Assembly (NCBI GenBank): GCA_943787625.1
Contig: CALSND010000004.1
Location: forward strand, 4,401 to 68,400
Length of the DNA: 64,000 bases
Reading direction: 5' to 3'
Source of the DNA: an uncultured Gammaproteobacteria bacterium
Lineage (GTDB): Bacteria > Pseudomonadota > Gammaproteobacteria > Ga0077536
The notes under the pieces were generated by a model. It was given only the letters and a program-made list of their open reading frames with translations. It did not search any database and was not told the origin of the DNA. This document shows positions 37,646 to 56,779 of the stretch, piece by piece. Position 1 is the stretch's first letter. Each line of letters opens with the position of its first letter. Made by a program: the position numbers and the translations under genes.

Positions 37646-37659
37646 AACGTAGTAAGTCG

Positions 37660-39194: not shown

Positions 39195-39226
39195 GCCATT
39201 TGAGAAATGTAACGTGCGTTATTGCG

Positions 39227-40166: not shown

Positions 40167-40955
40167 TTAATTCCCCGTAAAATCAGGATCACCTTCATTA
40201 AGATACACGTTTTTCGCGACTTGTTGATCAGAGGTCTTCGCCACGAATAAATGCTGATCTGCATCCATATGCATTAATCCTTGATCCAGCACGCCGCAAA
40301 TATTGTTAATACTACGCTTAATCATTTGCGCGGCGATCGGAGACTTGTTGATATAGTCTTGCGCAAATTTAATACAAGAATCAATCAATTGATCGTCAGG
40401 CACCACACTTTCTAGCAAGCCCCAGCTAAGTAATTTCTCGGAAAAAACTTTCTCGGCTCCAATGACTAAACGTTTAGCCCGAGTAGGTCCGATAAGCCGT
40501 ATGGTCAGAGGTAAGCTTTGCCACATAAGATTTAGTCCTAGCTCTATCTCCGGGTAGTGCATGAATGATTTATCCGTACCTATCCTAAAGTCAGCCGCGG
40601 TCGCAAGACACGCTCCACCGCCGATAGCACCTCCGTTCCACGCGGCGATAGTTATCTGATCCATGGAAAGGATCGCCTTGAGAACCCTTTCGCCCATTCG
40701 CAGTTTTCTCCGAAGCAAAACGATGGGCGTGTCGGTTTTAGTCTCCATTTCGGTGATATCGGCTCCGGAGGAAAAGTGCTTGCCCTCACCTGTAAAAATA
40801 ACGACTCTGGTTTCAGCGTCTTCTCGGAATGAGAGAGCACAGTGCTCAATTTCATTTAAGTGACCATAGCTAAGAGCGTTTGCTGTTTCGGGACGACTAA
40901 ATCTAACGATTGCCAGATGACCATCTCGTTTTACATTCAAGTAGTTATAAGTCAT
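40167..40955 (-). CDS. enoyl-CoA hydratase/isomerase (crotonase family)
   Basis: GEGKHFSSGADI oxyanion motif. 262 aa. Confidence 0.85.
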   Translation of the reverse strand: MTYNYLNVKRDGHLAIVRFSRPETANALSYGHLNEIEHCALSFREDAETRVVIFTGEGKHFSSGADITEMETKTDTPIVLLRRKLRMGERVLKAILSMDQITIAAWNGGAIGGGACLATAADFRIGTDKSFMHYPEIELGLNLMWQSLPLTIRLIGPTRAKRLVIGAEKVFSEKLLSWGLLESVVPDDQLIDSCIKFAQDYINKSPIAAQMIKRSINNICGVLDQGLMHMDADQHLFVAKTSDQQVAKNVYLNEGDPDFTGN

Positions 40956-40964
40956 AACAATGTT

Positions 40965-41843
40965 TTAAAACAAGCCTCCGGCAAGCTCAGATAACTCCTC
41001 GAGCATTGAGGATTGCTCGGAGGATTGCAGCCAAACAACAATACCATCGGCTCCTGCATCGGCTACCGCTGCCATATCAGTTTTTGTTCGGAAAAAACCA
41101 TCAGGGGCAAACATTGTTATGTCTAGCTCGGAGGGGTTTCGGTCGAAAGCTTTCGCATGCTTGGTAATTTCTTTCCTTCCATCAACTAACTCTTGAGGAT
41201 CTACGCTGAAAGGCAACCAGCCATTCCCCCATTTTGCTACACGCTTAAAGACCAATGGGGTACCGATGCTACCTAGGAGAACTGGCGGGTGAGGTCTACG
41301 GTGAGGCATTGGCTTACAAATAATTCTAGGGAAGTCATAATATTTGCCGTGATGCTCAACATACTCGCCAGTCCACAGGGCTTTCATTACGTCAACGTTC
41401 TCTTTTGTTTGCGTCCATCGGTGATCAAAATCACCGCCCAATACTTCACATTCTGGTTTGTTCCATCCGGCACCAATACCCAAGAGGAACCTCCCCTTGG
41501 AATAATGATCGAGGCTGGCAATAGCTTTAGCGGTCATTATGGGATTGCGTTCAGGTAAAAGTGTAATCCCCGTGCCTAGTTCGATCGTGGTTGTGTTCGC
41601 AGACGCCCTGGTCAGAGCAATCAAAGGATCTGGCATTTTGAATAAGTAGTCAGGAGTTTCTTGACCTGGCACTTTCCCGGGATAATCGTCTGCTGAGCCT
41701 TCGGGTATGACGGTATGTTCGGCTGTCCAATAAGAAGAAAAACCAAGTTCTTCAGCTTTTTTTGCTATAACCGCGGGGTCACCAGTCTCCATGTCGGATA
41801 AGACTTGGAAAACTCCCACTTTCATTCCTTTAAATAATTTCAT
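40965..41843 (-). CDS. luciferase-like monooxygenase (LLM) family oxidoreductase, resembles F420-dependent subfamilies
   Basis: ATG at 41843 is preceded by GAGGGG. LLM blocks AEHTVIP, LLPERNPIMTAKAIASLDHYSKGRFLLGIGAGWNKPE, HHGKYYDF. Confidence 0.75.
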   Translation of the reverse strand: MKLFKGMKVGVFQVLSDMETGDPAVIAKKAEELGFSSYWTAEHTVIPEGSADDYPGKVPGQETPDYLFKMPDPLIALTRASANTTTIELGTGITLLPERNPIMTAKAIASLDHYSKGRFLLGIGAGWNKPECEVLGGDFDHRWTQTKENVDVMKALWTGEYVEHHGKYYDFPRIICKPMPHRRPHPPVLLGSIGTPLVFKRVAKWGNGWLPFSVDPQELVDGRKEITKHAKAFDRNPSELDITMFAPDGFFRTKTDMAAVADAGADGIVVWLQSSEQSSMLEELSELAGGLF

Positions 41844-42127
41844 AGTTGCCCCTCGGTTCAAATTATTGTTATCCACTACTACCGCAACAAGGCTTTGACC
41901 TTCCCGCGCAATTTTCAAGAAATTATAGGCATAACCGTTTCGTTTTGTCAGCTTTGATAGCGTGTGCGGTATTAACGGGCTTTTTTGCGTGTAGCGATAC
42001 TGATAAACCTAAGTGTGGGAAGATCTTGATTTTAAACCTTTTCGGGAACAGAATTAGGATTAGTGGCGAGTACGTAACTTATTAGCACGCAGGATAAGAC
42101 TTAATTAGTATAACGGGAGATAAAGCA

Positions 42128-43231
42128 ATGAAGTTGGGCTATTTCATGATGCCATTGCATCACATAGATCGGGATTATCACGAGACGCTGCAGGAAGATA
42201 TTGAGGCTATCGTGCTTGCTGACGAACTAGGCTATTCAGAGGCGTGGGTTGGTGAGCATTATTCTTCTGCCGTCGAACAAATTACTTCTCCCCTCATGTT
42301 TCATGCAAATCTTATTAACAGGACAAAGCAGATCAAATTTGCAACTGGAGTAATGTGTTTGCCACAATACCATCCAGCAGTTCAAGCGGGGCAAGCTGCA
42401 ATGTTCGATCACCTAAGTGAGGGTCGGTTTATCATGGGAGTTGGACCTGGTGGTTTATTGAGTGATTTTGAGTTGTTTGGTGTTTTAGAAAAAGATCGTA
42501 TGGAAATGATGGAAGAGTCCTTAGATATGATCCTTGAACTTTGGGACACAGAACCACCGTACAAGATGCACGGCAAGCACTGGAACATTGAAATGAAAGA
42601 TTGGACCCACCACGACATCAAGTTAGGATATGTTCCCAAACCTTTACAGCAACCTCATCCACCGATAGCGATGTCGGCGATGAGTCCATCATCGAGTTCT
42701 CTTACTTTTGCGGGCCAGCGTGGCTATATTCCGGTTAGCGCAAACTTTATAGCCCCATGGTCAGTTAAGACTCATTGGCCAGCTTATTGCGCTGGGGCTG
42801 ATAGTGCAGGAATGACAGCAGATCCAAATGAATGGCATGTAGCTCGAAGTATATTTGTGGCGGATACCGACACCGAAGCGGAAGAATTTGTTAAAACTTC
42901 TGGTGGTGCTTATGATTACTACTACGATTATTTATTTAAGATTTTTGATCGATCTGGTTTCAAGGGACCTTTTGTAACCAATCAAGGAGATGATCCCGAA
43001 TCACTAACACCCACTGCTGTCCGCGATGCGTGTGTCATCTACGGTAGCCCCGAAACTGTCGCTAAAAAGATTATAGATTTTAAAGATGATGTTGGTGATT
43101 TTGGAACATTGCTTTATGCAGCACATGATTGGACTGATAAAGCCGCTATGAAAAAGTCGATGCGTTTAATGGCTGAACATGTAATGCCGATGGTCAATAA
43201 AGACTCTATTGGCCTTGCATCCGCAGGTTGA
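42128..43231 (+). CDS. LLM-family flavin-dependent monooxygenase (LimB/alkanal-monooxygenase-like, probably two-component FMN type)
   Basis: MKLGYFMMPLHH...LGYSEAWVGEHYSS..EQITSPLMF...LSEGRFIMGVGPGG. 367 aa. Confidence 0.75.
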   Translation: MKLGYFMMPLHHIDRDYHETLQEDIEAIVLADELGYSEAWVGEHYSSAVEQITSPLMFHANLINRTKQIKFATGVMCLPQYHPAVQAGQAAMFDHLSEGRFIMGVGPGGLLSDFELFGVLEKDRMEMMEESLDMILELWDTEPPYKMHGKHWNIEMKDWTHHDIKLGYVPKPLQQPHPPIAMSAMSPSSSSLTFAGQRGYIPVSANFIAPWSVKTHWPAYCAGADSAGMTADPNEWHVARSIFVADTDTEAEEFVKTSGGAYDYYYDYLFKIFDRSGFKGPFVTNQGDDPESLTPTAVRDACVIYGSPETVAKKIIDFKDDVGDFGTLLYAAHDWTDKAAMKKSMRLMAEHVMPMVNKDSIGLASAG

Positions 43232-43286
43232 TATAAATTTATTTTTAGTAATATTTAATGATTTTACGTTTAGGAGAAAATGTCGG

Positions 43287-44300
43287 GTGAGTAACAAAAA
43301 ATTAAGATTTGGACTTTGGTATGACTTCAGAAATCCTCCACAATGGCAGCGTGACAATACTGAGCTGTATCATGAGTGCTTTGATCAAATAGTGCGCGCT
43401 GAGGAGGCGGGCTTTGATGATATTTGGTTGTCCGAACATCATTTCCTAGATGATTGCTACTCGCCTTCGATGTTGCCTATAGGCTGTGCTATTGCAGCTA
43501 GGACAAAAAAAGTACACATTGGGACGAGCGTACTGTTACTACCCCTGCACGATCCGGTTCGTGTTGCCGAAGATGCTGCCACGCTTGATGTGATCTCTGG
43601 CGGACGCTTGGAGCTCGGGTTAGGTGTTGGATATAAAGCTGAAGAGCTTAAAGCATGGGGAGTTGAACCTAAATCAAGAGGCAAGCGCATGGATGAAGGT
43701 ATTGAAATTATTCAACGTCTTTTTGCGGGAGAACGCTTCAGTTTCCATGGAGAGTACAACAACTTTGAAGACATACAGTTAAGACCGTTGCCGGTACAAA
43801 AAAATCCTCGGCTTTGGATCGCGGGCTTCAGTAATATCGCGGTTCGAAGAGCAGCTAGAGTAGGGGCGGGGTATATAGCGATAGGTCCCGTCGGTCCTTT
43901 TACTAAAGTCTATAGAGATGAACTAGCTAAAACTGGGAAGAATCCGGAGGATTTTGAAATTGCGGCAGGCTATGCTTGGTTGCATGTAGCAAAAGATCCT
44001 GAAAAGAGATGGAAAGAGGCGGTTGAACACCTGGCATATCAGCAAAATGAATACGGGAAGTGGTTCAGTGGTGCGGGCATGGATTTTATTAAGCCCGTGG
44101 AGGCAACTAGAGAGTCTATTGAGCAGAACGATGTTTACATCGTCAGTCCTGAGCAAGCATGCGAAATGATAGAAAAATACCAAGAAGCAACAGGATGCCA
44201 ACGGTTTTACACTTGGGCTGTCCCACCCGGCATGAGTCCGAGTTGGTCGGATGAACACATTGAGTTAATGGCAAGCGAGGTAATGCCCGCTTTTCGGTAG
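43287..44300 (+). CDS. LLM-family oxidoreductase
   Basis: GTG at 43287, 10 nt after TAGGAG. The longer track ORF (43209) overlaps the previous gene. LRFGLWYDF, GFDDIWLSEHHF, ATLDVISGGRLELGLGVGY. Confidence 0.75.
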   Translation: MSNKKLRFGLWYDFRNPPQWQRDNTELYHECFDQIVRAEEAGFDDIWLSEHHFLDDCYSPSMLPIGCAIAARTKKVHIGTSVLLLPLHDPVRVAEDAATLDVISGGRLELGLGVGYKAEELKAWGVEPKSRGKRMDEGIEIIQRLFAGERFSFHGEYNNFEDIQLRPLPVQKNPRLWIAGFSNIAVRRAARVGAGYIAIGPVGPFTKVYRDELAKTGKNPEDFEIAAGYAWLHVAKDPEKRWKEAVEHLAYQQNEYGKWFSGAGMDFIKPVEATRESIEQNDVYIVSPEQACEMIEKYQEATGCQRFYTWAVPPGMSPSWSDEHIELMASEVMPAFR

Positions 44301-44357
44301 CAGCCTGCGATGGGCACGCACCTAGGCTTTTGGGGTCAGCGGCTGTTGTAGGACAGA

Positions 44358-45416
44358 TTATAGAACCTGTATAGTCTCATTCTCATTGATTAATTTTATA
44401 TTTGAGAACTCAGCGCGTGCGCTAGCATGTTGAAATGTAGCCACACCAATTAGCCAAATTGCGGTTACTTTATGTGGAGTGAATTTCATCGACTTGCCAA
44501 CATCTGTATAAAGATTTCGCGACTCACGCAGCCATTCGTTTTTTTGCTCGGTGCCTTTACGAATTACGTAATGAGTTTCTCGATCAGACCAGGATTTGAT
44601 CGGGCAATCAAAATAATGGTCGACGTCGAGTTGGCTACTCCATATCCATGTTAGGTCACGACCGTTATCGAATTCGGCTGCGACCGATATATAGTCATGG
44701 TATCTAGCTTCGTCTTCCTTATTTTGGCTGGGATGTTCTAAAAGCTTCCAATCCCACTGCAATTGCGTGGAAGGGAAGACATTAAATTCAATAGGCTTGC
44801 GCAGGATCCCTTGATCGTCTTTGGCATTGAGCGAAATACATTTATTGTTGTTCTGTACATTGCTTGAGTAGATGTCACTAATTCCCGTGTCTTTCAGATA
44901 CTCCCAGCCAAATGGAGTTATTACAGGACATTGTAATTGCGCGAGAGCCTCACTTAATAATGTCGAGTTACAAGCTGTTATAAGCTTTTTTAGTCCGTTT
45001 ATAACGTTATCTTTCCACAGAATAACAATTACTTCCAAGCTTCCGCTTAATGCTCTGTAATTACCGCTTTCTGTTTGTAGGTCACCTTGAGCATTAGCCC
45101 ATGTACCAAAGTAAATAGCTAGCTCGAGCGATCCAGTTCGATCAGCTACGAACGTACCGGTATTACGAACAACATTATTTGTCTGTCCTCTCGGCACACG
45201 GCTCCACAAATGGAAGCCTGGTCCTCCATACAAGCTAGGGTCGCGGCTCGACCATTGAATTTTTCCAGCAGCGAGTAGGGTGTAGGTTTGGCCTACTTGT
45301 ACCTGGAGATCCGATCTATACCATGGTGGCTCATTGCCAGCCAAGGAAATATAAGATACTTTTTGAACTTCTGAGATTGAACTTTCTTCTATTGCTTTTG
45401 CTAATTGACGCACCAT
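44358..45416 (-). CDS. two-domain hypothetical protein with a DUF3047-like C-terminal domain (tentative)
   Basis: 352 aa, with no signal peptide or TM helix. The C-terminal half (WDWKLLEHPSQNKEDEARYHDYISVAAEFDNGRDLTWIWSS...VTAIWLIGVATFQHASARAEFSNIKL) matches my recollection of the DUF3047 pattern. I do not recognise the N-terminal half. Confidence 0.4.
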   Translation of the reverse strand: MVRQLAKAIEESSISEVQKVSYISLAGNEPPWYRSDLQVQVGQTYTLLAAGKIQWSSRDPSLYGGPGFHLWSRVPRGQTNNVVRNTGTFVADRTGSLELAIYFGTWANAQGDLQTESGNYRALSGSLEVIVILWKDNVINGLKKLITACNSTLLSEALAQLQCPVITPFGWEYLKDTGISDIYSSNVQNNNKCISLNAKDDQGILRKPIEFNVFPSTQLQWDWKLLEHPSQNKEDEARYHDYISVAAEFDNGRDLTWIWSSQLDVDHYFDCPIKSWSDRETHYVIRKGTEQKNEWLRESRNLYTDVGKSMKFTPHKVTAIWLIGVATFQHASARAEFSNIKLINENETIQVL

Positions 45417-45606
45417 TAACGCCTTTCTTAATTTAGAGGAACTTTAAGTATTCTCATAAAATTTTAATTGGTAGTAAAGTGTTGTAATAAGTTGCAAAAA
45501 ATACGGATTAATTAGTATCAAAATTAGTTTATTATCTATCTATGGTTCTGGGCTTAAGATAGCTTTGTGGTCTTGGTAAGATTTTGATTAGACAAAAGGT
45601 GTAGAG

Positions 45607-46530
45607 ATGAAAATTAGACTTGGTTTTGGGTTACTCAATTATCCGTTTGAGGATGGCAAAGGTTTTTTTCGCTGGGTAGAAATGCTGGAGCAGGCGGGAG
45701 TTGATTCTGTGTGGCAATCTGACCGTCTTATCTCGTCCGATAATTATTTAGAGTCATTAAGTGCTTTAGCCTCTTTAGCGGGGTGCACTGAGAAAATAAA
45801 ATTTGGTATGAACGCTATCGTGGCACCGTTGCGAGATCCTCTTGTTTTAGCAAAACAGTGTGCGACGATCGATTATCTCAGTGGAGGACGGTTGCTACCA
45901 ATGTTTGGTGTCGGGTACCCCAAAGCTGCGGAATGGGAGGCTACTGGTCGAAGTTCAGACCATCGAGGCTCTAAAGCAAATGAAATGTTCCAGCTGTTGT
46001 CGCGTCTGTGGAGTGAAGAATCAGTGACTTTTGAAGGAAAGTATTACCAGTATAAAAATGCGACTATTGCACCGCGGCCTGTTCAACAGCCGTTGCCTTT
46101 GTGGATTGGAGGCTCTAGCAATGCAGCGATTAATCGAACTGGAGTGCTAGGATCTGGTTGGATAGGGGGAATCACGAGTCCTGAAGATGTGAAACGCGTT
46201 ATATTAGGTATAAAGGCGAAGGCTAAAGAAGTTGGACGGGATATCGATGATGATCATTACGGAACTTCGATAGGGTTCCGCATAGGAACTCCGCAAGATG
46301 ATGCAGTGGTAAACTCTCCTTTCGTAAAGAGAACAGGAATAGGAGAAAATTTAGACCTTAATCCACTCTTTGCTATTGGTACCACACAGGAAATAATCGC
46401 ACGTATCCAGCAGTACATCGACGCCGGGGCGAGTAAGTTTGTCATGTTCCCCATAGCTTCAGGTGAGGCAGATATGATCGACCAAACGAGGCGTGTCGTA
46501 GCTGAAATTAAACCAGCTATCGAAAATTAA
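45607..46530 (+). CDS. LLM-family oxidoreductase, resembles F420-dependent subfamilies
   Basis: 307 aa. APLRDPLVLAKQCATIDYLSGGRLLPMFGVGY, FEGKYYQY, PLPLWIGGSS. Confidence 0.75.
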   Translation: MKIRLGFGLLNYPFEDGKGFFRWVEMLEQAGVDSVWQSDRLISSDNYLESLSALASLAGCTEKIKFGMNAIVAPLRDPLVLAKQCATIDYLSGGRLLPMFGVGYPKAAEWEATGRSSDHRGSKANEMFQLLSRLWSEESVTFEGKYYQYKNATIAPRPVQQPLPLWIGGSSNAAINRTGVLGSGWIGGITSPEDVKRVILGIKAKAKEVGRDIDDDHYGTSIGFRIGTPQDDAVVNSPFVKRTGIGENLDLNPLFAIGTTQEIIARIQQYIDAGASKFVMFPIASGEADMIDQTRRVVAEIKPAIEN

Positions 46531-46542
46531 GAGAAATTAAAA

Positions 46543-46580
46543 CCAGCCGCGTTACCTTTCATCTAAGATAACACGGCTGG
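46543..46580 (-). terminator. hairpin between convergent genes, probable terminator of the RRM-protein gene
   Basis: 12-nt arms at 46543-46554 and 46569-46580 with one mismatch. On the minus strand it is followed by TTTTAATTTCTC. Confidence 0.45.
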
Positions 46581-46592
46581 TCTAAACAACTT

Positions 46593-46847
46593 TTATCGTC
46601 TATCTTCTCTCGGACGAGCTTCGTTTACTCTAGCTTCACGTCCTTTAAGCATTGCTCCGTTTAGCTCTGAGATGGCGGCCTCGCCTTCATTCTGATTTGG
46701 CATTTCAACGAAACCAAACCCTTTCGAGCGACCAGTGTCTCGATCTGAAATTATTTTGCAGCTGTTTACCTGCCCGTGTTGTTCGAAAGATTCTCTTAGC
46801 TCTTCAACACTGATGTCGTAAGATAGGTTTCCAACATAAATATCCAT
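46593..46847 (-). CDS. RRM-domain RNA-binding protein
   Basis: 84 aa. RNP2 IYVGNL and RNP1 KGFGFVEM. Short Arg-rich tail. Confidence 0.9.
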   Translation of the reverse strand: MDIYVGNLSYDISVEELRESFEQHGQVNSCKIISDRDTGRSKGFGFVEMPNQNEGEAAISELNGAMLKGREARVNEARPREDRR

Positions 46848-47303
46848 AAACTTATACCTTTTTATAAATGCCGTCTTATATTGTTAGTAGTTCTTGCCCG
46901 ACAGCAAAATGGCCAGAACCGTTTAGAAACTATTTTGTCCTTAAGTGTAGAAATGTGTTTTCTCGGCTCCAATGTAACTTGATCAATCGTATGCCACAGC
47001 GAACGCGATTGATTGTGTGATTATGTGTGGTTTAGTTAGCAAGAATCGGAGCCTGAAAGAGATATTGGGTCATGTGGAAACTGATAATTTCATGACAGAC
47101 ACTTACAAATTAATTTGTGGTGACGTCTGATTTTCAAGTCAGTTATTTTCGACTATTTCTACTATCCTCATTGATCATACGCCTTGCGCGTGAGACTTCA
47201 TAATAATCATGTATTTGATAGGTAGCAACACTTTGGTGCGATATTTAATGGAAAACTACTGCCGTTATATAGAAAAAACTATTAGAATCAGTGCTTTATA
47301 ATC

Positions 47304-48312
47304 CTATCGGGTAATCACTATTTTGCCGTAGAATCCCCGGTTTTCGAGCAAATCGAGACCTGAATGGACGTCTTCGAAGGTCAGAGTACTATAAATTACC
47401 GGGCTAATGGCGCCTATATCGAGAAGATTGTAGAGATGGTTCTGCACAGAATTAACTTTCTCTGGTGCTCGCTCTATGTATTGACCCCATGCTAATCCAA
47501 TAACTGCACAATTCTTAAGTAGCATCCGATTGCATTCAATTTTAGGGATCGAGCCTCCGGCAAATCCAACAATGATGATGCGTCCATCCCATGCGACGCA
47601 GCGTTTCGTCTGCTCGAAGATATCACCACCGACGGGATCGTATATAACATTCGCTCCCTTCCCATCTGTAAGGCGCTTAACTTCATCAACCAAATCTTGG
47701 GTATTGTAATTTATAGTGTGATCGGCGCCTTGACGTGCGCACACATCAATTTTTTTCCTGATTTCCAGCTGCTGCGATCACTTTTGCACCTAGCAATTTT
47801 CCTAACTGGATCGCGGCGAGGCCGACGCCACCGGCGGCCCCAAGTATTAAAAGAGTTTCACCAGGACGTAAATCAGCACGGTGGATTAGTCCAAAATATG
47901 ATGTTCCGTAGGTTACGCTTAAAGCGGCGAGAGTAGTATCAGGTATATGCTCAGGTACACGCCAAGCGCTATTGTTGGAGACTTCAAAGTAATCAGCCAG
48001 AGTGCCTCCACCATGGCAGAATCCCACCACTTTATCACCAACACGGAACTTACTATTGTCGCCAGTCTCTGTAACGACACCAACCCCTTCAACGCCGGGT
48101 ACAGCTGGTAGTGGCGCTTTTACCTGATAGAGGCCCTGAGTCACCAGTAGATCAGGGAAATTCAAGGAGACAGCTGATGTCTGAACAATTGCACCCTCAT
48201 TGGATGGTGTGGGAATATCTCTGTCAACCCAATGCAGTACATCTTTATGATTTCCATATTCACTGAATTGCCAAGCTTTCATTAGAGAGATTACTCCAAT
48301 TGGTTTACGCAC
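47304..48312 (-). pseudogene. NADPH:quinone oxidoreductase / zeta-crystallin-type MDR, frameshifted in a homopolymer (pseudogene or sequencing error)
   Basis: N-terminal ORF 47746-48312 and C-terminal ORF 47304-47744. If the T7 run at 47750-47756 (A7 on the coding strand) were one base shorter, the junction reads ...AAGNQEKIDVCARQGADHTINY. Rossmann motif LILGAAGGVGLAAIQL. Confidence 0.8.
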
Positions 48313-48322
48313 GAATTATCGC

Positions 48323-49180
48323 TTATATGAGTTTAGTAGAAGCGGGCTCCGGCACTACTGTATTTTCAATATAGCCTAACTTTTCTATTTCTACGCGTAC
48401 TCGATCTCCGGCACATAGAAACTTTTTAGGATCAAATCCTATTCCGACGCCACTGGGTGTTCCAGTAAGTATCACGTCACCAACTTCTAATGTGAAGGCG
48501 GCAGTTAAAGTAGCAATTTGATCATAGCAATCAAAGACTAAATGCCGGGTATTTGAATTCTGTCTTAGCTCATCATTTACCCAGGTTTTGATAGTAAGAT
48601 TATGTGGATCCTGAATCTCGTCCGCAGTTGTTAACCAAGGTCCGAATGGACTGTGGGTATCGAACGATTTTCCAAGAGTGAAAGTCTGGGCTTTCATCTG
48701 CCAATCTCGAACACTGACATCGTTACACACGACATATCCGGCGATGACATTACTGGCTTCCTCTCGGGATACATGCCTACATTTTTTGCCGATAACAAAG
48801 CCCAACTCCCCTTCGTAATCGAGTTTGTCAGATACTTTAGGCAGATGAATGTCGTTATAAGGTCCATTTACTGCTGTCGATTGTTTGTTAAAGAACATTG
48901 GAAATTCTGGGGTAGCCAATCCAGTTTCCTCTATATGATCTTTATAGTTCAGCCCGATAGCTATAATCTTTTTAGGATTCGGTATAGGTGAGAGTAGCTC
49001 CAAATCGCTTAATAAATGGGATTCGCCTGATATACTCTGAGCAATTTTTAACGATTCAGGACAAGAGATTAAAGGTATCATGTCATCGGGAAGGCTAGCA
49101 CTGGATAAATCAATTATTTTATCTCCTTCTAACCGACCTATCTTGCGTTCGCCCTTCTCTAAAAAAGTTACTAATTTCAT
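48323..49180 (-). CDS. fumarylacetoacetate hydrolase (FAH) family protein
   Basis: 285 aa. IGLNYKDHIEE, DYEGELGFVIGKK, and GTPSGVG at the C-terminus. Confidence 0.85.
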   Translation of the reverse strand: MKLVTFLEKGERKIGRLEGDKIIDLSSASLPDDMIPLISCPESLKIAQSISGESHLLSDLELLSPIPNPKKIIAIGLNYKDHIEETGLATPEFPMFFNKQSTAVNGPYNDIHLPKVSDKLDYEGELGFVIGKKCRHVSREEASNVIAGYVVCNDVSVRDWQMKAQTFTLGKSFDTHSPFGPWLTTADEIQDPHNLTIKTWVNDELRQNSNTRHLVFDCYDQIATLTAAFTLEVGDVILTGTPSGVGIGFDPKKFLCAGDRVRVEIEKLGYIENTVVPEPASTKLI

Positions 49181-49196
49181 AATTGACCTACGTATA

Positions 49197-51365
49197 TTAG
49201 CTGTAATGCAAAATAAGGTATTCGTCTAACCTCATTTGTTTATCAGGTGGGATAACTACGGTGGTCATCGGATCCCTTATGATAGATGGACCTTTGACGA
49301 CATTTCCTGGTAAAAGTTCCGCCATTTCCCAAACGTTAAATTCTACCCATTTATCTTTATGGTATACCTGTCGAGCCTCAACAAAGGCGTTCTGCTGCGG
49401 CACCTCAGAGGTTAGTTCATGTTTTATTAGGTGTGGTTGGGGTTTGTCAGCAATTGCTTCAAGGTGAATATCAGTTAGGGAATAACCTGCAGCTCCAAAT
49501 TTCGCTCCTTCTGGGTAAACTTTTGCATACATATCCTCGTACGCTTCTATTAAATTTTGAATGTCTGCCGGACCATTCATCCGACCTGAACTCAGGGCAG
49601 TATTGAAGCTCTCTATTTGACCCATATATCGTGCTGAGACAGCGTATCTAAACGTTATTGTGTCCGGATCAATTCCTTCTGCCTTCATTTGTGTGAATGC
49701 TTCTTTTTCTAAATCTCTCCAGGCTTGGCTTATTTCGTCCGCTACACTTTGGAGATGTTCGTCGCTGGAACCGTTAGGAATCAAGGCTCTTGTCCCGCGG
49801 TCGTAACGATGCATGTATTCAGCGCACGCGGCTCCGAACGCCGAGAATCCAGCCGCCCAGGGAACTGTTATTACGTCTTTAAACTCTATTCCTTCGGCAA
49901 AACCATACATGTGAACGGGGCCCGCCCCTCCATAATAGAGCATGGTGAAGTCATGCGTATCATATCCTTTCGAAGCTACCATAGTTCTGAGGAGGTCATT
50001 CATCTCCTCATTTATCATGGCGAGTAAGCCAGCGCCCGCCTCATACACGTCTAAGCCCAAAGGGTCAGCGACAGTCTCTTTCAATGCCTTTAGAGCTTTT
50101 TCTCGGTCAAGAGATACCTGTCCGCCAAGAAAGTAATTAGGGTCGACATAGCCAAGAGCCACATTGATATCAGTAACAGTTAGCTTGTCATAATTAAGAC
50201 AAATGCCTACCTTAGCGCCTGCAGAGTCGGGACCTACATGCAGTCGCTTATATTCATCTACCCAAACCACTGAGCCCGCCCCTTGACCAGCCGAGTCGAG
50301 TTCCACCATTGGCAACGCCAAACGATGACCGGCGATATCAGCACTTTTAGCTATATTTATTCTTCGGTCTATTATTAATCCGACATCAAAGCTTGTGCCG
50401 CCCATATCTGCAGTAACTATATTATCTAGGTCCAAAACGTTAGCTAAAAACTGTGCGCCGATTAAACCGCCAACGGGTCCCGATATCATAGTTTCGTAAA
50501 GACGCGTGTAGTCCATATTGACAGCGCCGCCATACGAAAGTAGTGTCAGAAGCCTGCCTTGAAAACCAAGTTCTTGAGCCGACTTCTCTACATCTAGAAG
50601 CGACTCTTTTACTTGTTCCGCAGCAAAGCACTGGAACATCAAACTTTTTAGTCGGCTATTTTCTTTCGCTACCGGAGCAATATCTGCCGAACAAACTACC
50701 GACACGGAAGTTCCTGCTTTTTTAATTTCATCCTCTGCAATTAATTTTGCCTGATGCTCATGTCGTGGGTCTACGAAAGAATAAAGAAACAGTATCCCTA
50801 TAACTTCACATTCTTCTGCAATAAGCTTTTTGGTCGCAGTTCTGACTTGTTCCTCATTTAAGGGTATTAGTACATGTCCAGCGGGGAGATGTATTTCACC
50901 TAAGTAGCAACCACCACCAATTCGTTCGCTCACGCCCAGTACATTCTTAGGATCTACCAGTGGGGTAGTGTGTTTATGGAGTTGCTGATGTAACGCCTCT
51001 GCTTGGCTCTGGCCAAGGTAAGTTAAGCCGCCTTCCATTACGGTTAAATCTTCAAAACCTCTAGTTACTATGAGGCCGATTTTTCTCCCGTCGCCGGTCA
51101 AAATAGTATTTAACATACCCGTTCCGCAGTAAACGTCTGCAGCAAGTCTAGAATGTACTGTTTCAGAAGTGAGCCCTATAGATTGCGCTGCGTCGGCAAC
51201 AGAATCGCGGTAGCTTTTTTGTTGGTCATCTTTACGACTAATTGATTTACCTACTGTAAACGTTCCGTCAGGCTTTACTAGTATGGCATCGGTCATGGTC
51301 CCACCCGCGTCTAGCGCTAGGATTAGATCTTGGTCAGCATCGCCTTTGGGAGCTATAGTGCTCAT
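49197..51365 (-). CDS. hydantoinase A / acetone-carboxylase beta-subunit-like protein (HyuA family)
   Basis: 722 aa. N-terminal ALDAGGTMTDAIL (ASKHA ATPase fold) and DMGGTSFDVGLI. Confidence 0.85.
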   Translation of the reverse strand: MSTIAPKGDADQDLILALDAGGTMTDAILVKPDGTFTVGKSISRKDDQQKSYRDSVADAAQSIGLTSETVHSRLAADVYCGTGMLNTILTGDGRKIGLIVTRGFEDLTVMEGGLTYLGQSQAEALHQQLHKHTTPLVDPKNVLGVSERIGGGCYLGEIHLPAGHVLIPLNEEQVRTATKKLIAEECEVIGILFLYSFVDPRHEHQAKLIAEDEIKKAGTSVSVVCSADIAPVAKENSRLKSLMFQCFAAEQVKESLLDVEKSAQELGFQGRLLTLLSYGGAVNMDYTRLYETMISGPVGGLIGAQFLANVLDLDNIVTADMGGTSFDVGLIIDRRINIAKSADIAGHRLALPMVELDSAGQGAGSVVWVDEYKRLHVGPDSAGAKVGICLNYDKLTVTDINVALGYVDPNYFLGGQVSLDREKALKALKETVADPLGLDVYEAGAGLLAMINEEMNDLLRTMVASKGYDTHDFTMLYYGGAGPVHMYGFAEGIEFKDVITVPWAAGFSAFGAACAEYMHRYDRGTRALIPNGSSDEHLQSVADEISQAWRDLEKEAFTQMKAEGIDPDTITFRYAVSARYMGQIESFNTALSSGRMNGPADIQNLIEAYEDMYAKVYPEGAKFGAAGYSLTDIHLEAIADKPQPHLIKHELTSEVPQQNAFVEARQVYHKDKWVEFNVWEMAELLPGNVVKGPSIIRDPMTTVVIPPDKQMRLDEYLILHYS

Positions 51366-51432
51366 GTATTATTTCTCCAAAAAAATTAGTGCCAATCGCG
51401 TAATTTGCAATCGACAGAACAGATAGATTTGC

Positions 51433-52001
51433 CTACTGGTTCCAAGTGGCAGTAGTTTCTGCCGTTCTGTCTCTATACCAGTCCTCAGAGGCATCCGCGA
51501 GAGGGCGTCCTAAGTAGTCAGCGTAAAATTTATCAAGATCGGGAAGCATTTCAAAAATCACTGGGTATCCTGGAGGCACTACTTCAACTGCATGCTGAGT
51601 ACCACAGTCGGGACAAAAGTACTCACGGACTTCTTGCCAGCCTGCCTCAGGAACCGCAGGGGCGGGATCGTACACAGCCTTCATCTCTTCGGCAGTTTTT
51701 CGGGTGCGAATTTTACTGGCAAGTTTCCAATTCGTTCTATAATCACCAAACTCGAAGCCGCATTCGCATTGGGTTTACGCGCTTTCCATGCCCTTTACTT
51801 ACGATATAAAGTTTGTCAGAGAGCCTCAGGAGGATGGGATCATTCCATGATACACGATCCTGAAGTACCTCAATGTAAGTAAAGAATCTGTCACTGTCTT
51901 TTCTTTGGCAACTTGAGAAGTCTATCGACGTTGTCATCGTCTATGGTACCTTCAACAAGTTGTTCAATAATGCCTTTGCTGATCGAGATATCATCTTCCA
52001 T
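51433..52001 (-). pseudogene. acetone-carboxylase gamma-subunit-like protein, at least 2 frameshifts (pseudogene or sequencing error)
   Basis: ATG at 52001 is preceded by GGAGG. Three pieces lie in different frames: MEDDISISKGIIEQLVEGTIDDDNVDRLLKLPKK; KDSDRFFTYIEVLQDRVSWNDPILLRLSDKLYIVSKG; and ORF 51433-51684, which has the zinc-ribbon-like EYFCPDCGTQHAVEVVPPGYPVIFEMLPDLDKFY. Confidence 0.7.
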
Positions 52002-52018
52002 TTCACCCCTCCAGCACG

Positions 52019-54245
52019 TTAAAATTCTAGAGGCAAATTCCAAAATGACGTGAATTCTTTTCTAAATTTGTCGAAGCTCAAGCTCTCGTTGTACATAAGA
52101 CCCACCTCTGGGAAGAACGCAGCATTTTGCACGATATCTCGCTCTTCTGCCCACCAATCTTTAAGGTCAGATGACTCGCTGAGCCTTTTTTTGCGCAAAT
52201 CAACGCGTTTTGCGTCAGTAGACGCTTGGTCTAAAGTCCAAGTGCCATCAGAAGCTTGCTCAGCAACAACGCCATGCATTTCTTTTACGAAGTCGTAGTC
52301 AGGACAAACGCCTGAGTTTAGATCTTCGATAACTGCATTGGGATTCGCGGTCAAGTGGATCTCCCCAACCTCCAGAGGATCCGGCCGCGTCGACAAATAG
52401 ATCATTATTTTTCATGGATAGCTCTGGACAGTCCATTTTCCAAACTTGCAGATCATCAACTTTAAGTTCACCACTGTCCGTCATCTCCAATAGTTCTCGA
52501 GCATCTCTTGGGGCTAATCCTTTTTTGTTGACTTCATCTAAATTAGTGCCGCGAGCCGATATCATGAAGCTGGAAGGGCCGGGGTAAGCTCCGTTCATGC
52601 CGAGTGCGACTGAAGCAGTTGAAGAAAGCCCGCCATTGGGTCTAGTAATTCCAATATGTTTGCCGGGTTCTACGCACCAGTGAACTGCAGATTCCCCTGG
52701 GCCACCCCGATATTTGCCAGAACCAAAGTAACCTGGGAGCAATTTTCGTCCCAAATAAAACATCGGAGGCACAGTACTTTCAAATTCTTCCGCATCGCCT
52801 ATAGTCGCCATTTGAGACCAAGCAGCCCATGCTAATGGTTCACCATCTTTGAAGCACCAGGCACCTCGAGCAGATCCTCCAAGCCATTCAAAGTTCGTGA
52901 AACCATATGCAGTTCCGTCTTTCGCCGTTCCTTGCCCTTGCCAAGCTCCCCAGTTGCCGTCTATGCAGAACGCTTCCTCAAGATAGCCAAAACAGAACAT
53001 TGCGCGACTAACCGCGCCGAATCCTATGTTATTCAGAGTCACGGTCTGGGCCCATGGATTCGCGTTGCTGGTATACTCATTATCAGGGTTCAGTATTGAG
53101 CCCTTGGGATAATTTCGCTGAACTGCTAACTCTATGCCAGCGGTGACTTTTGTATTGTGAGAAAATGAATTGATCATCCCCAAAAACAACGCAGCATCGG
53201 TGGCCCCAGGGGTGGCGTTATAGGCGTGGTTCCCCCACCGAGAGGTCCCTTCTGTATCTACCATTAGCCCATTTTCATTGGGCTCGACACTGGCTCTGAT
53301 GTGGATCAGGGTATTTTTGTCGGCATGCGACCAGATTGTTTGCAGCCCTTTGTATTGCGCCATACGAAAAGCGGCCCCATTATAGGTGCCGGGCACCATT
53401 GTGGATTTCATATTATCCACAACGCGCCGTCTCGACTCTTCAACAATTTCTCTAATCGCTTGCTTATAGTAATCGAGCCCAAATTCGTCGATAAGCTTAT
53501 GTGTTGCTTCGTGGATCATGGCGCATCCGGCCAACCGCATTTTGTCGTCTAGAATGTTCATGGTCCCAGCTCGCGTTCTTCTCTCCCACATGGCCTTCCA
53601 CCAAGTTTCTTGTTTCAGTTTCCTGCCAGTGCGCATAGGAGGGACCACTAAACCATCCATGAAGGTATCAACAGAGAAGGTTGCCCAAGAGCCGGCCACA
53701 GGAGCACCGTTTTCCATAAGGTGATTGATTCCAACAGCCCACGCGACGACTTCTCCCTCGATACATATGGGGACAAAGGAATAGAAATCTCCTGGATGGG
53801 GGACTCCGCCAGTTAAGCCATCACTTACGCCGTAGACATCACCGTCTTCTATGCCATCGTTGACGTCATAATCGTTGGCTGCCATATACCGGACAGCTAC
53901 AGGAAATATGGCAGTATGCGATAGAAAACCAGTTGATACGGCTAGAGTATCGCCTTCCGCAGTCGTGATACCCCATAGGCATTCGCCCATCTCTCTAGAG
54001 CCAGGGCTGGCGGCTACGAACCTAGCTGACTCGCGGGCGCCTAAAACGGAAGAGTGGATCTTTGAGTAGAATCTTTCATATTTAATCGGGTCTGAGGCTT
54101 TTAGCGATAGTTCTTTAACCCCGTAATAGTGGCCGCTAGACTCAGTCAACTCATCTCTTTTATCTACTGCTTGCCTCAGGGTTGGTGGGCTTAACTCTGA
54201 GACCGAACCCACTTCATTGTTGATTTCTTTAGCAATTGTAGCCAT
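52019..54245 (-). pseudogene. hydantoinase B / acetone-carboxylase alpha-subunit-like protein (HyuB family), one frameshift near the 3' end (pseudogene or sequencing error)
   Basis: A 648-aa ORF (52299-54245) and a 128-aa ORF (52019-52405) overlap in different frames. Removing one base near 52343 joins ...GGWGDPLDRE|PNAVIEDLNSGVCPDYDFVKEMHGVV... The total is about 740 aa, the size of an acetone-carboxylase alpha subunit. Confidence 0.8.
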
Positions 54246-54623
54246 TAGTTAACTCCTCAGATGGTTAGCCTCGTCGAACATGCCGATTTAGCGGGGAACG
54301 CACACGTTGTATTTCCCCAGTCTATGGATAAAAAAAAATATTATCTTTGATGCCTATTTCAGATATTACATAGGTTTGCTGGATTTGTTAAATATTTTCA
54401 CCGTATTTTATGGTGCGGCGGAGCGGGTATTTTTAAGTATATGTTTTTGCGAGAAAAATTAAATTCTATAAACCTTGTATTTAATGTGGTATTGACCGAT
54501 GTGGATAATTTTGTTGTATGAAAGGACGCTCCAAATTTTCATTTAAAACGTTCGAAAAATAGCTACACTCTTGTTACAGTCAAGCAAATCAACTATTGAA
54601 AAAAGCTCTTAAGAGGTAGTGAT

Positions 54624-55647
54624 ATGAAAATTGCTTTTATGCCCGACACCCATTTTGGTGAGTACGATCAGCAGGAACCGCCCAAACCCTGATGAAGTTG
54701 CTGACGCGATGGATCATTGTATCGCTGAGGCACGTTTAGCAGAGGAGGTTGGTTTCGATGGTCTATGGGTGCCTGAGCGACACCAAAGACCAGAGACGTG
54801 GTGGCCAAATGTTACCTCGCTGCTCGCGGTTATCGCGGCGAACACAAAAACTGTCCAAATCGCCAGCACGGTAATACAACCAACTTTCCATCATCCGATA
54901 CATCTAGCTGAGGCGCTAGCAGCAGTAGATAATTTGAGCCGAGGTCGTTTTGTGTTCGGTGCAGGTGTTGGATATCACCAAGATTATTTTAAATGCTTTG
55001 GTGTGCCTTTCGAGAAACGTGGCAGGCGGTTTGAAGAGACCATGGATTGTATTGTTGGAGCTTGGACGCAAGAAGAATTCAATTATAGCGGAGAGTTCTA
55101 TAATTATGAGGGAGTGAAACTAAACCCGAAACCGTTTCAAAGGCCTCGTCCCCCTATTTGGATAGGCGCGTTTGCACCTAAAGCAATGGAGCGAGCGCTT
55201 GATTATGAAGGTTGGTGCTTATGGTTCCCGCCTCACCTCGACATATTGGCTCCCGCGGTAGCAGATATGCGTCAGAGAGCATCAGATAAAGGGAAAACTA
55301 ATTTTCAGATCACGATTGGATTTGAAGGTTGGTTAGGCGACGATCCTAAACTGAGAGAAAAACATGTGCACAGATGGGTTCGCGAGTGGAGCTTTTACGC
55401 AGATAATGGACTTTCGCCAGAAGCTGAGTCAAAGGATATGGCGGAGCAAGTAGAAAGCATGTTTGTCTGTGTGGGTAATAAACAGAAATGGATTGACAGG
55501 ATGTCAGAAATGAAAGAAAGGGTCAATCCAGATTGGCTTTGTATTAGAACTCGCAACCCTAAAAATGGATCGGAATTCTACCCATCTCGGAGCGAATGTT
55601 TAGATGTCATAGAAGCGTTTGGTGAGATACTAGACGAGTTGCGATAG
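54624..55647 (+). pseudogene. LLM-family oxidoreductase with an N-terminal frameshift (pseudogene or sequencing error)
   Basis: ATG at 54624 after AAGAGG reads MKIAFMPDTHFGEYDQQEPPKP, then TGA. The track ORF continues ...PNPDEVADAMDHCIAEARLAEEVGFDGLWVPERH. The shift lies within the CCCAAACCC tract at 54681-54689. Confidence 0.75.
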
Positions 55648-55738
55648 TGTAGAGAGGTCTTACTGGCATTCAAATAATGTCACGCGATGAGTCAAATGAA
55701 GTAAGATAACTTGGTAGTTTTTTTTAAGGAGTAGAAGT

Positions 55739-56779
55739 GTGAAGCTTGGCTTGGTTTTTGGTTATTCAGGTGCAAAGGTTCAAATTCCAATGGATTTGAT
55801 ACTTGAGGCGGAAAAAATTGGTTATGAGTCTGTTTGGAGTGCGGAAGCTTGGGGCTCAGACGCAGTAACTCCGATAGCTTGGATACTTGCCCAAACGTCA
55901 AGAATCAAAGCAGGTACCGCTATCATGCAGATGGCAGCGCGAACCCCGTCAATGACCGCAATGACTGCAATGACGCTAGATCAACTTTCTGGCGGAAGAT
56001 TCCTTCTGGGTATTGGCCCCTCTGGCCCGCAAGTTGCGGAAGGTTGGTACGGCCAGGCGTATGGGAAGCCTTTAACACGGACAAAAGAATACATTTCGAT
56101 TATTCGTAAAATCCTCGCTAGAGAAAATTCGCTAACTCACGAAGGTGAACACTATCAGATCCCTTTTGTCGGCGAGGGCAGTACGGGATTAGGTAAACCT
56201 CTCAAAAGTATATTGCATGGAAATCCTAAGCTCCCAATCTACACGGGAGTTGTGACAGAGAAAGGAGCACAGACTGCCGCTGAGGTGGCGGATGGAGCTT
56301 TTCTTGTTTGGGCTAATCCTGATAAGTTTGATTTGTTTCAACCTGCGTTGGAGCGAGGGTTCTCCAAATCCAGTGATGAAAGATCGATGGAGGATTTTGA
56401 TTTCGCTCCGTTTGTTAGGATGGTAATGGGGGATGATCTTGATGCGTGTAGACGTGAAGTTAAAAGTCAGTTCGCATTGTACGTGGGCGGGATGGGTGCG
56501 CGCGAGAAAAACTTCTACAATGACTACGCGAAGCGACTTGGATATGTTGATGCTGCGGAAGAGATTCAGGATTTATTTCTCACGGGTCAAAAGCAACAAG
56601 CTTGCGATGCCGTTCCAGATCAATTAATTGATGATTGCTGTTTGGTAGGTCCCGCTGAGCATATCAAAGAACAATTAACCCGTTGGAAAAGTGCGGGCTC
56701 GAGAGGAGAGATTGGAACAATGGTTATATCAGCTACTAAGCCCGAAGAGCTCAGGCTGGTTGCGGAGGAACTATTGTAA
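55739..56779 (+). CDS. LLM-family oxidoreductase resembling the F420-dependent Rv3520c-type subfamily
   Basis: GTG start. MKLGLVFGYSG..., SVWSAEAWGSDAVTPIAWILAQTSRIK, ARTPSMTAMTAMTLDQLSGGRFLLGIGPSGPQVAEGWYG, TGLGKPLK. This matches my recollection of that subfamily's conserved pattern. Confidence 0.8.
   Translation: MKLGLVFGYSGAKVQIPMDLILEAEKIGYESVWSAEAWGSDAVTPIAWILAQTSRIKAGTAIMQMAARTPSMTAMTAMTLDQLSGGRFLLGIGPSGPQVAEGWYGQAYGKPLTRTKEYISIIRKILARENSLTHEGEHYQIPFVGEGSTGLGKPLKSILHGNPKLPIYTGVVTEKGAQTAAEVADGAFLVWANPDKFDLFQPALERGFSKSSDERSMEDFDFAPFVRMVMGDDLDACRREVKSQFALYVGGMGAREKNFYNDYAKRLGYVDAAEEIQDLFLTGQKQQACDAVPDQLIDDCCLVGPAEHIKEQLTRWKSAGSRGEIGTMVISATKPEELRLVAEELL

Follow-up and report, generated by a model that had tools for sequence, protein, structure and literature searches.

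Six LLM genes in the vicinity of an F420 biosynthesis operon

The stretch of DNA considered here, 64 kb in length and derived from an uncultured marine gammaproteobacterium of the GTDB order Pseudomonadales (referred to as the window; all coordinates are positions within it), carries an operon for the biosynthesis of cofactor F420 and, at a short distance from it, six genes for luciferase-like (LLM) oxidoreductases, and the question which it raises is whether the F420 made by this operon serves the LLM proteins, and in what kind of metabolism. On balance, the results described below favour the interpretation that this locus represents a conserved catabolic island with an embedded F420 operon, in which LLM6, LLM1 and probably LLM4 would be dependent upon F420, and LLM2 and probably LLM3 upon reduced flavin mononucleotide (FMNH2). 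The identities of the genes, their membership in families defined by hidden Markov models (HMMs) and their order were observed directly, and it is from these that we infer the cofactors used, the substrates, and the serving of these LLMs by F420.

An HMM scan of the window identified six PF00296 (Bac_luciferase) genes, all of them within positions 40965-56779 and in the places where an initial annotation of this DNA had located them. Their scores of 160.9-226.1 bits, compared with a gathering score of 27.9, establish that all six belong to this superfamily, and no further PF00296 genes were detected by the scan in the remaining 48 kb of the window. The LLM genes are as follows.

40965-41843 (-): LLM1, Rv2161c-family LLM (TIGR03619 224.5 bits, cut-off 166.9)
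42128-43231 (+): LLM2, type II Baeyer-Villiger/LimB-like LLM (match to 4uwm, E 5.8e-38)
43287-44300 (+): LLM3, luciferase-type LLM (TIGR03619 172.4, cut-off 166.9)
45607-46530 (+): LLM4, uncharacterised LLM subfamily (TIGR03854 174.8, cut-off 295.6; TIGR03619 161.5, cut-off 166.9)
54624-55647 (+): LLM5 (TIGR03619 161.0, cut-off 166.9)
55739-56779 (+): LLM6, Rv3520c-family LLM of the Mer/fPKR type (TIGR03559 379.7, cut-off 335)

Although these genes had been described in the initial annotation as paralogues, the pairwise identity among LLM1-LLM6 is only 23-37%, which indicates that they are members of old and distant subfamilies that have been brought together, and not recent duplicates. They lie 4.7-20.5 kb from the F420 operon, which is composed of the following genes.

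31512-32282 (+): cofE, F420-0:L-glutamate ligase (TIGR01916 248.5 bits, cut-off 180.65)
32298-33257 (+): cofD, 2-phospho-L-lactate transferase (TIGR01819 275.8 bits, cut-off 257.45)
33248-33949 (+): cofC guanylyltransferase (PF01983 120.6 bits)
33950-36283 (+): fbiC, fused CofG/CofH FO synthase (two Radical_SAM stretches and CofH_C)

The operon is intact and the biosynthesis set is complete, with FO synthase (FbiC), CofC, CofD and CofE all encoded; in FbiC, a CxxxCxxC motif is present in each of the two radical-SAM halves (at residues 65 and 479). Due to the presence of cofC, cofD and cofE, full F420 should be made and FO alone should not be the end product. Among solved structures, CofC is closest to the 3-phosphoglycerate guanylyltransferase of Mycetohabitans, and in an alignment to 7p97 and 6bwg the position of Ser162, which is diagnostic of 3-phosphoglycerate use, is occupied by a Gly (motif FGRQS), as in the enzymes that use 2-phospho-L-lactate or phosphoenolpyruvate. 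Since a Ser at this position marks the use of 3-phosphoglycerate (PMC8764529), the presence of Gly instead leads to the prediction that the F420 is of the lactyl type. CofE is a single-domain protein which lacks the nitroreductase domain of FbiB, and hence a separate dehydro-F420 reductase would be needed if the substrate of CofC is phosphoenolpyruvate.

Predicted cofactor classes of the LLM proteins

The strongest case for F420 dependence is provided by LLM6. Its match to TIGR03559 extends over profile positions 1-318 of 325, in contrast to a score of 40 bits for the best FMN-family model, and the only match among solved structures (PDB) at E below 1e-8 is to Mer, which is F420-dependent. The relatives of LLM6 also carry the NCBI name 'LLM class F420-dependent oxidoreductase', and by every sequence criterion at hand this protein is very likely to use F420. 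For LLM1, the score on TIGR03619 compares with 62 bits for the best FMN-family HMM, and its matches to solved structures are mixed; F420 dependence is in this case a likely prediction, in which we have good confidence. LLM4 is nearest to F420-class families, and its family profile matches Mer (85.8 bits, aligned from the N-terminus) above SsuD/MsuD (71). In public records, some LLM4 orthologues are named "TIGR03619 family F420-dependent" and others "LLM class flavin-dependent". In view of its family profile and the location of its orthologues described below, LLM4 probably also uses F420. The initial annotation had noted that at least the genes at 40965, 45607 and 55739 resemble F420-dependent subfamilies, and this resemblance is supported for all three, with the first and the last passing curated cut-offs. 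The check by subfamily HMMs which it had suggested speaks against all six LLMs being of the FMN type, as LLM6 (TIGR03559) and LLM1 (TIGR03619) clear the cut-offs of F420-class models.

The remaining three proteins differ in this respect. The score of LLM5 on TIGR03619 is the same with its intact sequence (see below), just under the cut-off, and its best PDB matches are RslO1 (7bip; 82.7 bits), 8cbb (70) and Mer (58). Its cofactor class is ambiguous from these comparisons, with F420 dependence having slightly less than an even chance. LLM3, which has a GTG start and is identical to a 337-aa database protein, clears TIGR03619 only marginally. Against the PDB, its family profile matches the luciferase 8cbb (129 bits), RslO1 (7bip; 112), PuwE (6ket; 103) and Mer (86), and the motif SEHHF is invariant in its family. 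The predicted cofactor of LLM3 leans toward FMN, and its dependence upon F420 is possible but rather doubtful. LLM2 reaches no NCBIfam cut-off (92.4 on TIGR03619 versus 166.9) and aligns over its full length (residues 2-356 to 4-373, with identity of roughly one third) with 3,6-diketocamphane 1,6-monooxygenase (3,6-DKCMO; 4uwm). 3,6-DKCMO is an FMN-dependent type II Baeyer-Villiger monooxygenase, and LLM2 is probably also FMN-dependent, the use of F420 by it being very improbable on these matches; its initial description as a LimB-type FMN enzyme is thus borne out. The LLM set therefore appears mixed, with about half of the proteins of the F420 type and half of the FMN type, and up to three of the six looking FMN-type by sequence.

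Conservation of the gene block and its linkage to the cof genes

Relatives of the locus were sought using FbiC as the query and one genome per species. Of the at least 569 relatives found, the best 80 (64-78% identity) constitute the fbiC-anchored loci (labelled L002, L003 and so on), which were annotated with the proteins of the window. Almost all of these are metagenome-assembled or single-amplified genomes labelled Gammaproteobacteria or Pseudomonadales, and the labels among them include OM182, K189A clade, Ca. Azotimanducaceae and Spongiibacteraceae. In the nearest relatives, genes for a short-chain dehydrogenase/reductase (SDR), MaoC, CaiB, APH, two acyl-CoA dehydrogenases (ACADs) and an enoyl-CoA hydratase (ECH) diverge from cofE, and CaiB, LLM1, LLM2 and LLM3 follow fbiC. 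The SDR-to-ECH operon is kept beside the cof genes in L002, L003, L005, L015, L031, L044, L047, L050 and L079. In L003, the scores are 441 bits for LLM1, 675 for LLM2 and 664 for LLM3, and an additional SfnG/NtaA-type FMN LLM is present in the same place. LLM1-like genes adjoin cofE in L004, L006 and L007, and in L048 a TIGR03619 LLM (233.8 bits) is found downstream of fbiC. In total, 75 LLM open reading frames (ORFs) are present around fbiC in the 1.44 Mb of the 80 loci, or about 1 per 20 kb.

The association of LLM genes with the cof genes extends beyond this group. In the distant Pseudomonadales loci, the other neighbours change and the LLMs remain. An npdG gene (Fno; TIGR01915 188.5 versus 149.8) is located directly upstream of cofE in 43 of the 80 loci (one example is L029:6689-7465), in 30 loci a TIGR03564 F420-class LLM (310.5 versus 234) is divergent from npdG, and in 16 an orthologue of LLM4 (about 47% identity) is found 0.9-5.8 kb upstream of cofE. 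In the clade of the window, the place of npdG is taken by the SDR-led CoA-ester operon. Ten loci from K189A-type genomes (e.g. L029:4584-5474) also carry a PhyH gene (phytanoyl-CoA dioxygenase family), positioned between the LLM4 orthologue with an SDR and the genes for the F420-class LLM, npdG and cof, which hints at substrates of the isoprenoid type in these relatives.

For a reciprocal search, LLM4 orthologues were aligned and contigs from metagenomes were scanned with this alignment. Where LLM4 is 69-86% identical, the recurrent gene order is fbiC-CaiB-EamA-ECH-LLM1-LLM2-LLM3-DUF3047-LLM4-MDR-FAH-HydA-HydB-LLM5-LLM6(-MBL), where MDR denotes a medium-chain dehydrogenase/reductase, FAH a hydrolase of this family, HydA and HydB the Hydantoinase_A and Hydantoinase_B subunits, and MBL a metallo-beta-lactamase-fold hydrolase. 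L090-L092 retain this block, and parts of it are found in L093-L096, L099-L101 and L108-L110, with single members lost in some; L108 and L109 show a compact form, viz. cofEDC-fbiC-CaiB-LLM2-LLM3-LLM4-FAH. In three more distant loci (L170-L172, LLM6 66-68% identical), the carboxylase-like operon which is divergent from LLM5-LLM6 is kept exactly, and different genes stand in place of the CaiB, DUF35 and thiolase genes downstream of LLM6. The enzyme whose genes are kept together with the Rv3520c-type LLM resembles an ATP-dependent ketone carboxylase or a lactamase.

Neighbouring catabolic genes and the proposed pathway

Other genes of the window with a bearing on the LLM genes and the cof operon are listed below.

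24058-31302 (-): operon divergent from cofE, an SDR-to-enoyl-CoA hydratase gene set conserved beside cof
36432-37511 (+): family III CoA-transferase (CaiB), directly 3' of fbiC (PF02515 352 bits)
40167-40955 (-): enoyl-CoA hydratase, 9 bp downstream of LLM1 (PF00378 140.9 bits)
44358-45416 (-): DUF3047 protein, conserved between LLM3 and LLM4 (PF11249 81 bits)
47304-48312 (-): MDR/quinone-oxidoreductase-like reductase (325 aa when intact)
48323-49180 (-): FAH-family hydrolase (PF01557 245.5 bits)
49197-54245 (-): acetone/acetophenone-carboxylase-like or caprolactamase-like enzyme, three subunits
56818-57684 (+): metallo-beta-lactamase-fold hydrolase, lactonase-like (PF00753 71.6 bits)
59404-63417 (+): CaiB CoA-transferase, HMG-CoA-synthase-like/DUF35 fusion and SCPx-type thiolase
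4213-4690 (-): flavin reductase, two ORFs in the window (PF01613 136 bits with the two pieces joined)

The first of these operons encodes an SDR (PRK07791-like), a MaoC/MFE-2 hydratase, a CaiB-type CoA-transferase, an APH-like kinase, the large and small ACAD subunits and an enoyl-CoA hydratase. The three subunits of the carboxylase-like enzyme are Hydantoinase_A (49197-51365), Acetone_carb_G (about 51433-52001) and Hydantoinase_B (about 52003-54245), and their being encoded together identifies it as a member of the acetone/acetophenone carboxylase-caprolactamase family; the named carboxylase and caprolactamase equivalogs are matched by the Hydantoinase_A subunit alone, in all cases far under the cut-off. 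The metallo-beta-lactamase-fold hydrolase scores 100.8 bits on the AidB-type lactonase HMM, which is under the cut-off.

The spacing of the genes suggests several operons. LLM1 and the enoyl-CoA hydratase form one of these, with LLM2-LLM3 (55 bp gap; the pair is conserved) divergent from LLM1; LLM4 is a single gene divergent from the DUF3047 gene; and LLM5-LLM6-MBL hydrolase (gaps of 91 and 38 bp) is divergent from the operon HydB-gamma-HydA-FAH-MDR. Based on this arrangement, two sub-modules can be distinguished, viz. sub-module A located beside cof (LLM1-ECH, LLM2-LLM3, DUF3047 and LLM4), and sub-module B, in which the acetone-carboxylase-like operon with the FAH hydrolase and the MDR reductase is divergent from LLM5-LLM6-MBL hydrolase. 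The suggestion made in the initial annotation that the LLMs belong to a context of ketone and CoA-ester catabolism agrees with these surroundings, which encode genes of this kind.

In the mechanism that we propose, LLM6, LLM1 and probably LLM4 would draw on the F420 from the operon in two-electron hydride transfers, the targets being ketone/secondary-alcohol or enone intermediates. A precedent for such F420 ketone chemistry is provided by the phthiodiolone ketoreductase, which is also included in the Mer-type clade (PMC8518648). LLM2 and probably LLM3 would use FMNH2 and O2 to insert an oxygen next to a ketone, and the MBL-fold, alpha/beta and FAH hydrolases would open the oxygenated products. 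The carboxylase-like enzyme may offer an alternative route from a ketone to a beta-keto acid, and the CoA-transferases, the APH kinase with the ACAD pair, the hydratases and the thiolases would complete the breakdown to CoA esters. The flavin reductase, which the initial annotation placed at 4213-4703 and considered as a partner of the FMN-type enzyme, is present as a PF01613 gene, although it is split in the window and located 37 kb away; it is a possible supplier of FMNH2 for LLM2 and LLM3. The substrates degraded are most likely ketone-bearing alicyclic or methyl-branched lipids (terpenoid- or isoprenoid-like), as isoprenoid-derived methyl-branched or alicyclic ketones fit both the gene set and the PhyH of the relatives. 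A more far-reaching proposal, which is put forward tentatively and as having clearly less than an even chance of being correct, is that F420 acts as a dedicated catabolic cofactor in a widespread marine gammaproteobacterial clade, where LLMs of the LLM1, LLM4 and LLM6 types would feed a ketone carboxylase and FMN Baeyer-Villiger oxygenases acting on isoprenoid or alicyclic ketones.

Two further observations concern the neighbouring genes. At 24892-28211 (-), the APH-family kinase gene adjoins the pair of genes for the large and small ACAD subunits, an arrangement which we take to resemble the Lva and ACAD10/11 route, where phosphorylation of a 4-hydroxyacyl-CoA is followed by elimination of the phosphate; by analogy, this would fit the catabolism of opened lactones. 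At 60763-63417 (+), a 477-aa fusion protein combines an HMG-CoA-synthase-like domain with a DUF35 OB-fold/zinc-ribbon domain and is followed by the SCPx-type thiolase (PRK06157, 667.8 bits), an arrangement which is reminiscent of the archaeal thiolase/HMG-CoA synthase/DUF35 complexes and of BbsAB.

Contrary evidence and alternative explanations

A number of observations weigh against the role for F420 proposed above. No F420-reducing enzyme (npdG/Fno or Fgd) is encoded within the 64-kb window, where a tblastn search with the npdG of L029 finds none. LLM4 is below the cut-offs of both F420-class HMMs, and its orthologue from L029 scores 163.8 on TIGR03854 (cut-off 295.6). Examination of predicted structures, as had been suggested in the initial annotation, does not separate the two classes in this case: in a Foldseek search of the PDB with an AlphaFold2 model of LLM4 (made from 42 sequences; mean predicted local distance difference test, pLDDT, 79.3; predicted template-modelling score, pTM, 0.78), the FMN enzymes SsuD, SfnG and MsuD are equal to the F420 enzymes Mer and Adf in E-value and TM-score. 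LLM3 and LLM5 score near the TIGR03619 cut-off, yet they are FMN-like in comparisons with solved structures. The conservation of gene order in the closest clade may reflect simple relatedness, a homologue of LLM3 in Myxococcota is located among housekeeping genes, and no cof genes are found within 10 kb of the distant LLM4 homologues (about 50% identity, other habitats). However, the synteny of these distant homologues is uninformative, because the cof genes are dispersed in many phyla. As regards expression, contigs from two marine metatranscriptomes cover cof and all six LLMs at 95-100% identity. The coverage along these contigs is flat, one of them runs across the divergent HydB/LLM5 spacer and there is no uncovered control region, so that they may derive from carried-over genomic DNA. 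Lastly, a 13-nt motif which occurs upstream of LLM2 and of the SDR operon (described below) was not found at the orthologous positions in the related loci. The proposal of an F420-dependent redox module is supported in part, by the F420-type LLMs, and it is weakened by the up to three of six LLMs which look FMN-type and by the lack of an F420 reductase in the window.

Of the alternatives to be considered, the one that survives best is that FO or F420 is made for housekeeping use elsewhere in the cell (e.g. by a deazaflavin photolyase, or by stress or detoxification reductases), and the LLM island is merely adjacent to the operon. The lack of npdG in the window, the distant LLM4 homologues with no cof neighbours, and L170-L172, where the carboxylase operon and LLM5-LLM6 occur with no cof genes within 10 kb, are all consistent with this. 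However, the presence of cofC, cofD and cofE indicates that full F420 is made and not FO alone, the F420-class LLMs recur beside cof across clades with differing neighbours, and HMM scans of the window reveal no members of other F420-dependent families (FDOR/PNPOx, photolyase), and we thus regard this explanation as unlikely. It should also be considered whether all or nearly all of the six LLMs are FMNH2-dependent two-component monooxygenases, so that cof serves another purpose and the co-location has no meaning. The contrasting HMM scores of LLM6 and LLM1 and the exclusive match of LLM6 to Mer argue against this, as does the finding that in numerous distant genomes, whose neighbourhoods are otherwise different, the npdG-cofEDC-fbiC genes have F420-class LLMs and orthologues of LLM4 next to them. 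The features that would accord with it are the DKCMO-like nature of LLM2, the FMN-type best solved relatives of LLM3 and LLM5, the inability of Foldseek to tell LLM4 from SsuD, SfnG and MsuD, the extra SfnG/NtaA-type LLM of L003 and the flavin reductase gene within the window (37 kb off). In our assessment it is an improbable account of the set as a whole; if it were correct, the locus would be an ordinary catabolic island. Lastly, a biosynthetic cluster, with the LLMs as tailoring enzymes for a secondary metabolite or lipid, is highly improbable, since no PKS (polyketide synthase), NRPS (non-ribosomal peptide synthetase) or terpene synthase genes are present in the window and the LLMs are surrounded by enzymes of the beta-oxidation type, CoA-transferases, thiolases and a ketone-carboxylase-like enzyme. 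In its favour, roles in natural-product pathways are known for several of the nearest solved LLMs (RslO1, PuwE) and for F420 LLMs from actinobacteria (PMC8498797).

Comparison with known systems

In Mycobacterium tuberculosis, Rv3520c belongs to the KstR regulon and is divergent from Rv3521 (DUF35), ltp4 and ltp3, with a KstR operator that is common to Rv3520c and Rv3521 (PMC1995591). LLM6 passes the same TIGR03559, and in the window a DUF35 protein, an SCPx/Ltp-type thiolase, an acyl-CoA dehydrogenase and hydratases are encoded 4-7 kb downstream of it. The parallel with an Rv3520c-type LLM beside ltp/DUF35 genes that was drawn in the initial annotation is therefore correct for this window. 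However, the host here is Gram-negative, and at 66-68% LLM6 identity (L170-L172) the DUF35 and thiolase neighbours are lost and the carboxylase-like operon is kept. Rv3520c itself was inactive when included as an NADPH-dependent Baeyer-Villiger monooxygenase (BVMO) control (PMC9044951). LLM2, as noted above, is a full-length homologue of 3,6-DKCMO of the LimB type and the window does contain a flavin reductase gene, but this gene is not adjacent and LLM2 is paired with a second LLM (LLM3). With the F420-dependent LLM hydride transferases (Mer, fPKR, Adf, Fgd and fHMAD; Class I types A and B, PMC8518648), the proteins share the TIM-barrel LLM fold, and LLM1 and LLM4 are nearest to F420-class HMMs, whereas the subfamily of LLM4 is under all curated cut-offs.

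Stand-alone cofC, cofD and cofE genes with a fused fbiC in a single operon are likewise found in other Proteobacteria (Mycetohabitans rhizoxinica, which makes 3PG-F420, Paracoccus and Oligotropha). However, CofC here has a Gly and not a Ser at the diagnostic position, and candidate F420 enzymes surround the operon, whereas M. rhizoxinica lacks known F420 enzymes. A similar physiology is that proposed for the SAR202 group of Chloroflexi, where expanded FMN/F420 monooxygenases, CaiB transferases and SDRs have been connected with the oxidation of alicyclic dissolved organic matter (PMC5395668). This group is also marine, and it shares with the locus described here many LLMs (including DKCMO-like ones), family III CoA-transferases, SDRs and a proposed ketone-to-lactone-to-acid logic. 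However, it belongs to another phylum and its paralogues are dispersed, whereas here the LLMs are clustered, in physical linkage with a cof operon and the genes of a ketone-carboxylase-like enzyme, and at least two of them are clearly of the F420 class and not BVMO-like.

The production of F420 has been demonstrated in Alpha- and Betaproteobacteria (PMC8498797). The same review, from 2021, states that no F420-dependent enzyme had been studied outside Actinobacteria and Archaea, and asks why Proteobacteria make F420. Literature searches yielded no paper that connects F420 with Gammaproteobacteria as a whole or with the OM182, HTCC2089, Porticoccaceae or SAR92 groups. The earlier statement that no such physiology has been characterised in Gram-negative bacteria is thus in accordance with this review, but the idea is less new than it implied, as these genes are already called "F420-dependent" by the JGI and NCBI pipelines and a similar marine physiology was proposed for SAR202. 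What this locus and its relatives add is a link between a complete cof operon, a small and defined group of candidate F420 enzymes and a ketone-carboxylase/CoA-ester pathway. This bears on the breakdown of ketone-bearing lipids or terpenoids by marine bacteria, and the question can be tested with few proteins. A dedicated catabolic role, if true, would be the first defined physiological role for F420 in Proteobacteria, and its enzymes the first of their kind there; the LLM enzymes could also be useful as F420-dependent ketoreductases or ene-reductases.

Assembly-related frameshifts and other features of the window

LLM5 was described in the initial annotation as frameshifted. In the window it reads MKIAFMPDTHFGEYDQQEPPKP* from the ATG at 54624, with the reading frame shifting near 54681. 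However, this is due to a single extra C at 54681 in a C-run, which is lacking in every other DNA or RNA assembly covering this site, and LLM5 is intact (340 aa) in four other assemblies of the same species that are 99.9% identical over 18 kb. Compared with these, the window contains extra single bases, mostly in short homopolymers, at 47750, 51774, 51899, 52021, 52344, 54681 and 63954, and lacks a T after 58813; extra bases are also present at 36274 (fbiC, near the stop codon) and at about 37430-37434 (3' end of CaiB). The indels of the window also differ from Illumina contigs of this species. They produce false frameshifts in the MDR reductase (split by the extra T at 47750), in the carboxylase gamma subunit and Hydantoinase_B (Acetone_carb_G and Hydantoinase_B are disrupted by four 1-nt insertions), in LLM5, in the last ACAD and in the 3' ends of fbiC and CaiB. 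In the four assemblies, the intact lengths are 325 aa for the MDR reductase, 722 aa for Hydantoinase_A, 746 aa for Hydantoinase_B and 188 aa for Acetone_carb_G, and the possibility that LLM5, the MDR reductase and the carboxylase subunits are pseudogenes was therefore rejected. The split of the flavin reductase gene may have the same assembly cause. A different pattern is seen at 37400-39200, where a gene for a POT/PTR2-type peptide transporter is in many pieces; this region alone shows, relative to four runs, dense transitions (C/G in the window, T/A in the runs) and about 25 indels, and looks like an aberrant assembly patch and not a real pseudogene.

The 13-nt motif GCACGCRGGATAA occurs in only two places in the window, at 31348-31360 (-), upstream of the SDR operon divergent from cofE, and at 42085-42097 (+), upstream of LLM2. 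The chance expectation is 0.03, but it was from these two sites that the pattern had been defined, and as it is unconserved in the relatives, its interpretation as an operator shared by cof and the LLM genes was rejected. An Rfam scan of the window yielded zero matches.

At 2823-4068 (-) and 5116-12793 (+), the window carries a cluster consisting of genes for an MMPL/RND-type transporter, DUF1302, a HEAT-repeat protein and DUF1329/LolA-like proteins, together with a BNR/YCF48-like protein which may be split into two ORFs. The MMPL/RND-DUF1302-DUF1329 gene set is typical of Gram-negative bacteria that handle hydrophobic substrates, and these genes, along with the gammaproteobacterial nature of all relatives, indicate that the host is Gram-negative, as had been supposed earlier. 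Sequence of the window itself occurs in many marine metagenomes. A gene for a small RRM_1 RNA-binding protein (84 aa) is located at 46593-46847 (-), at the end of the MDR-FAH-carboxylase block, and its position is conserved both in the same species and in the distant relatives L170-L172.

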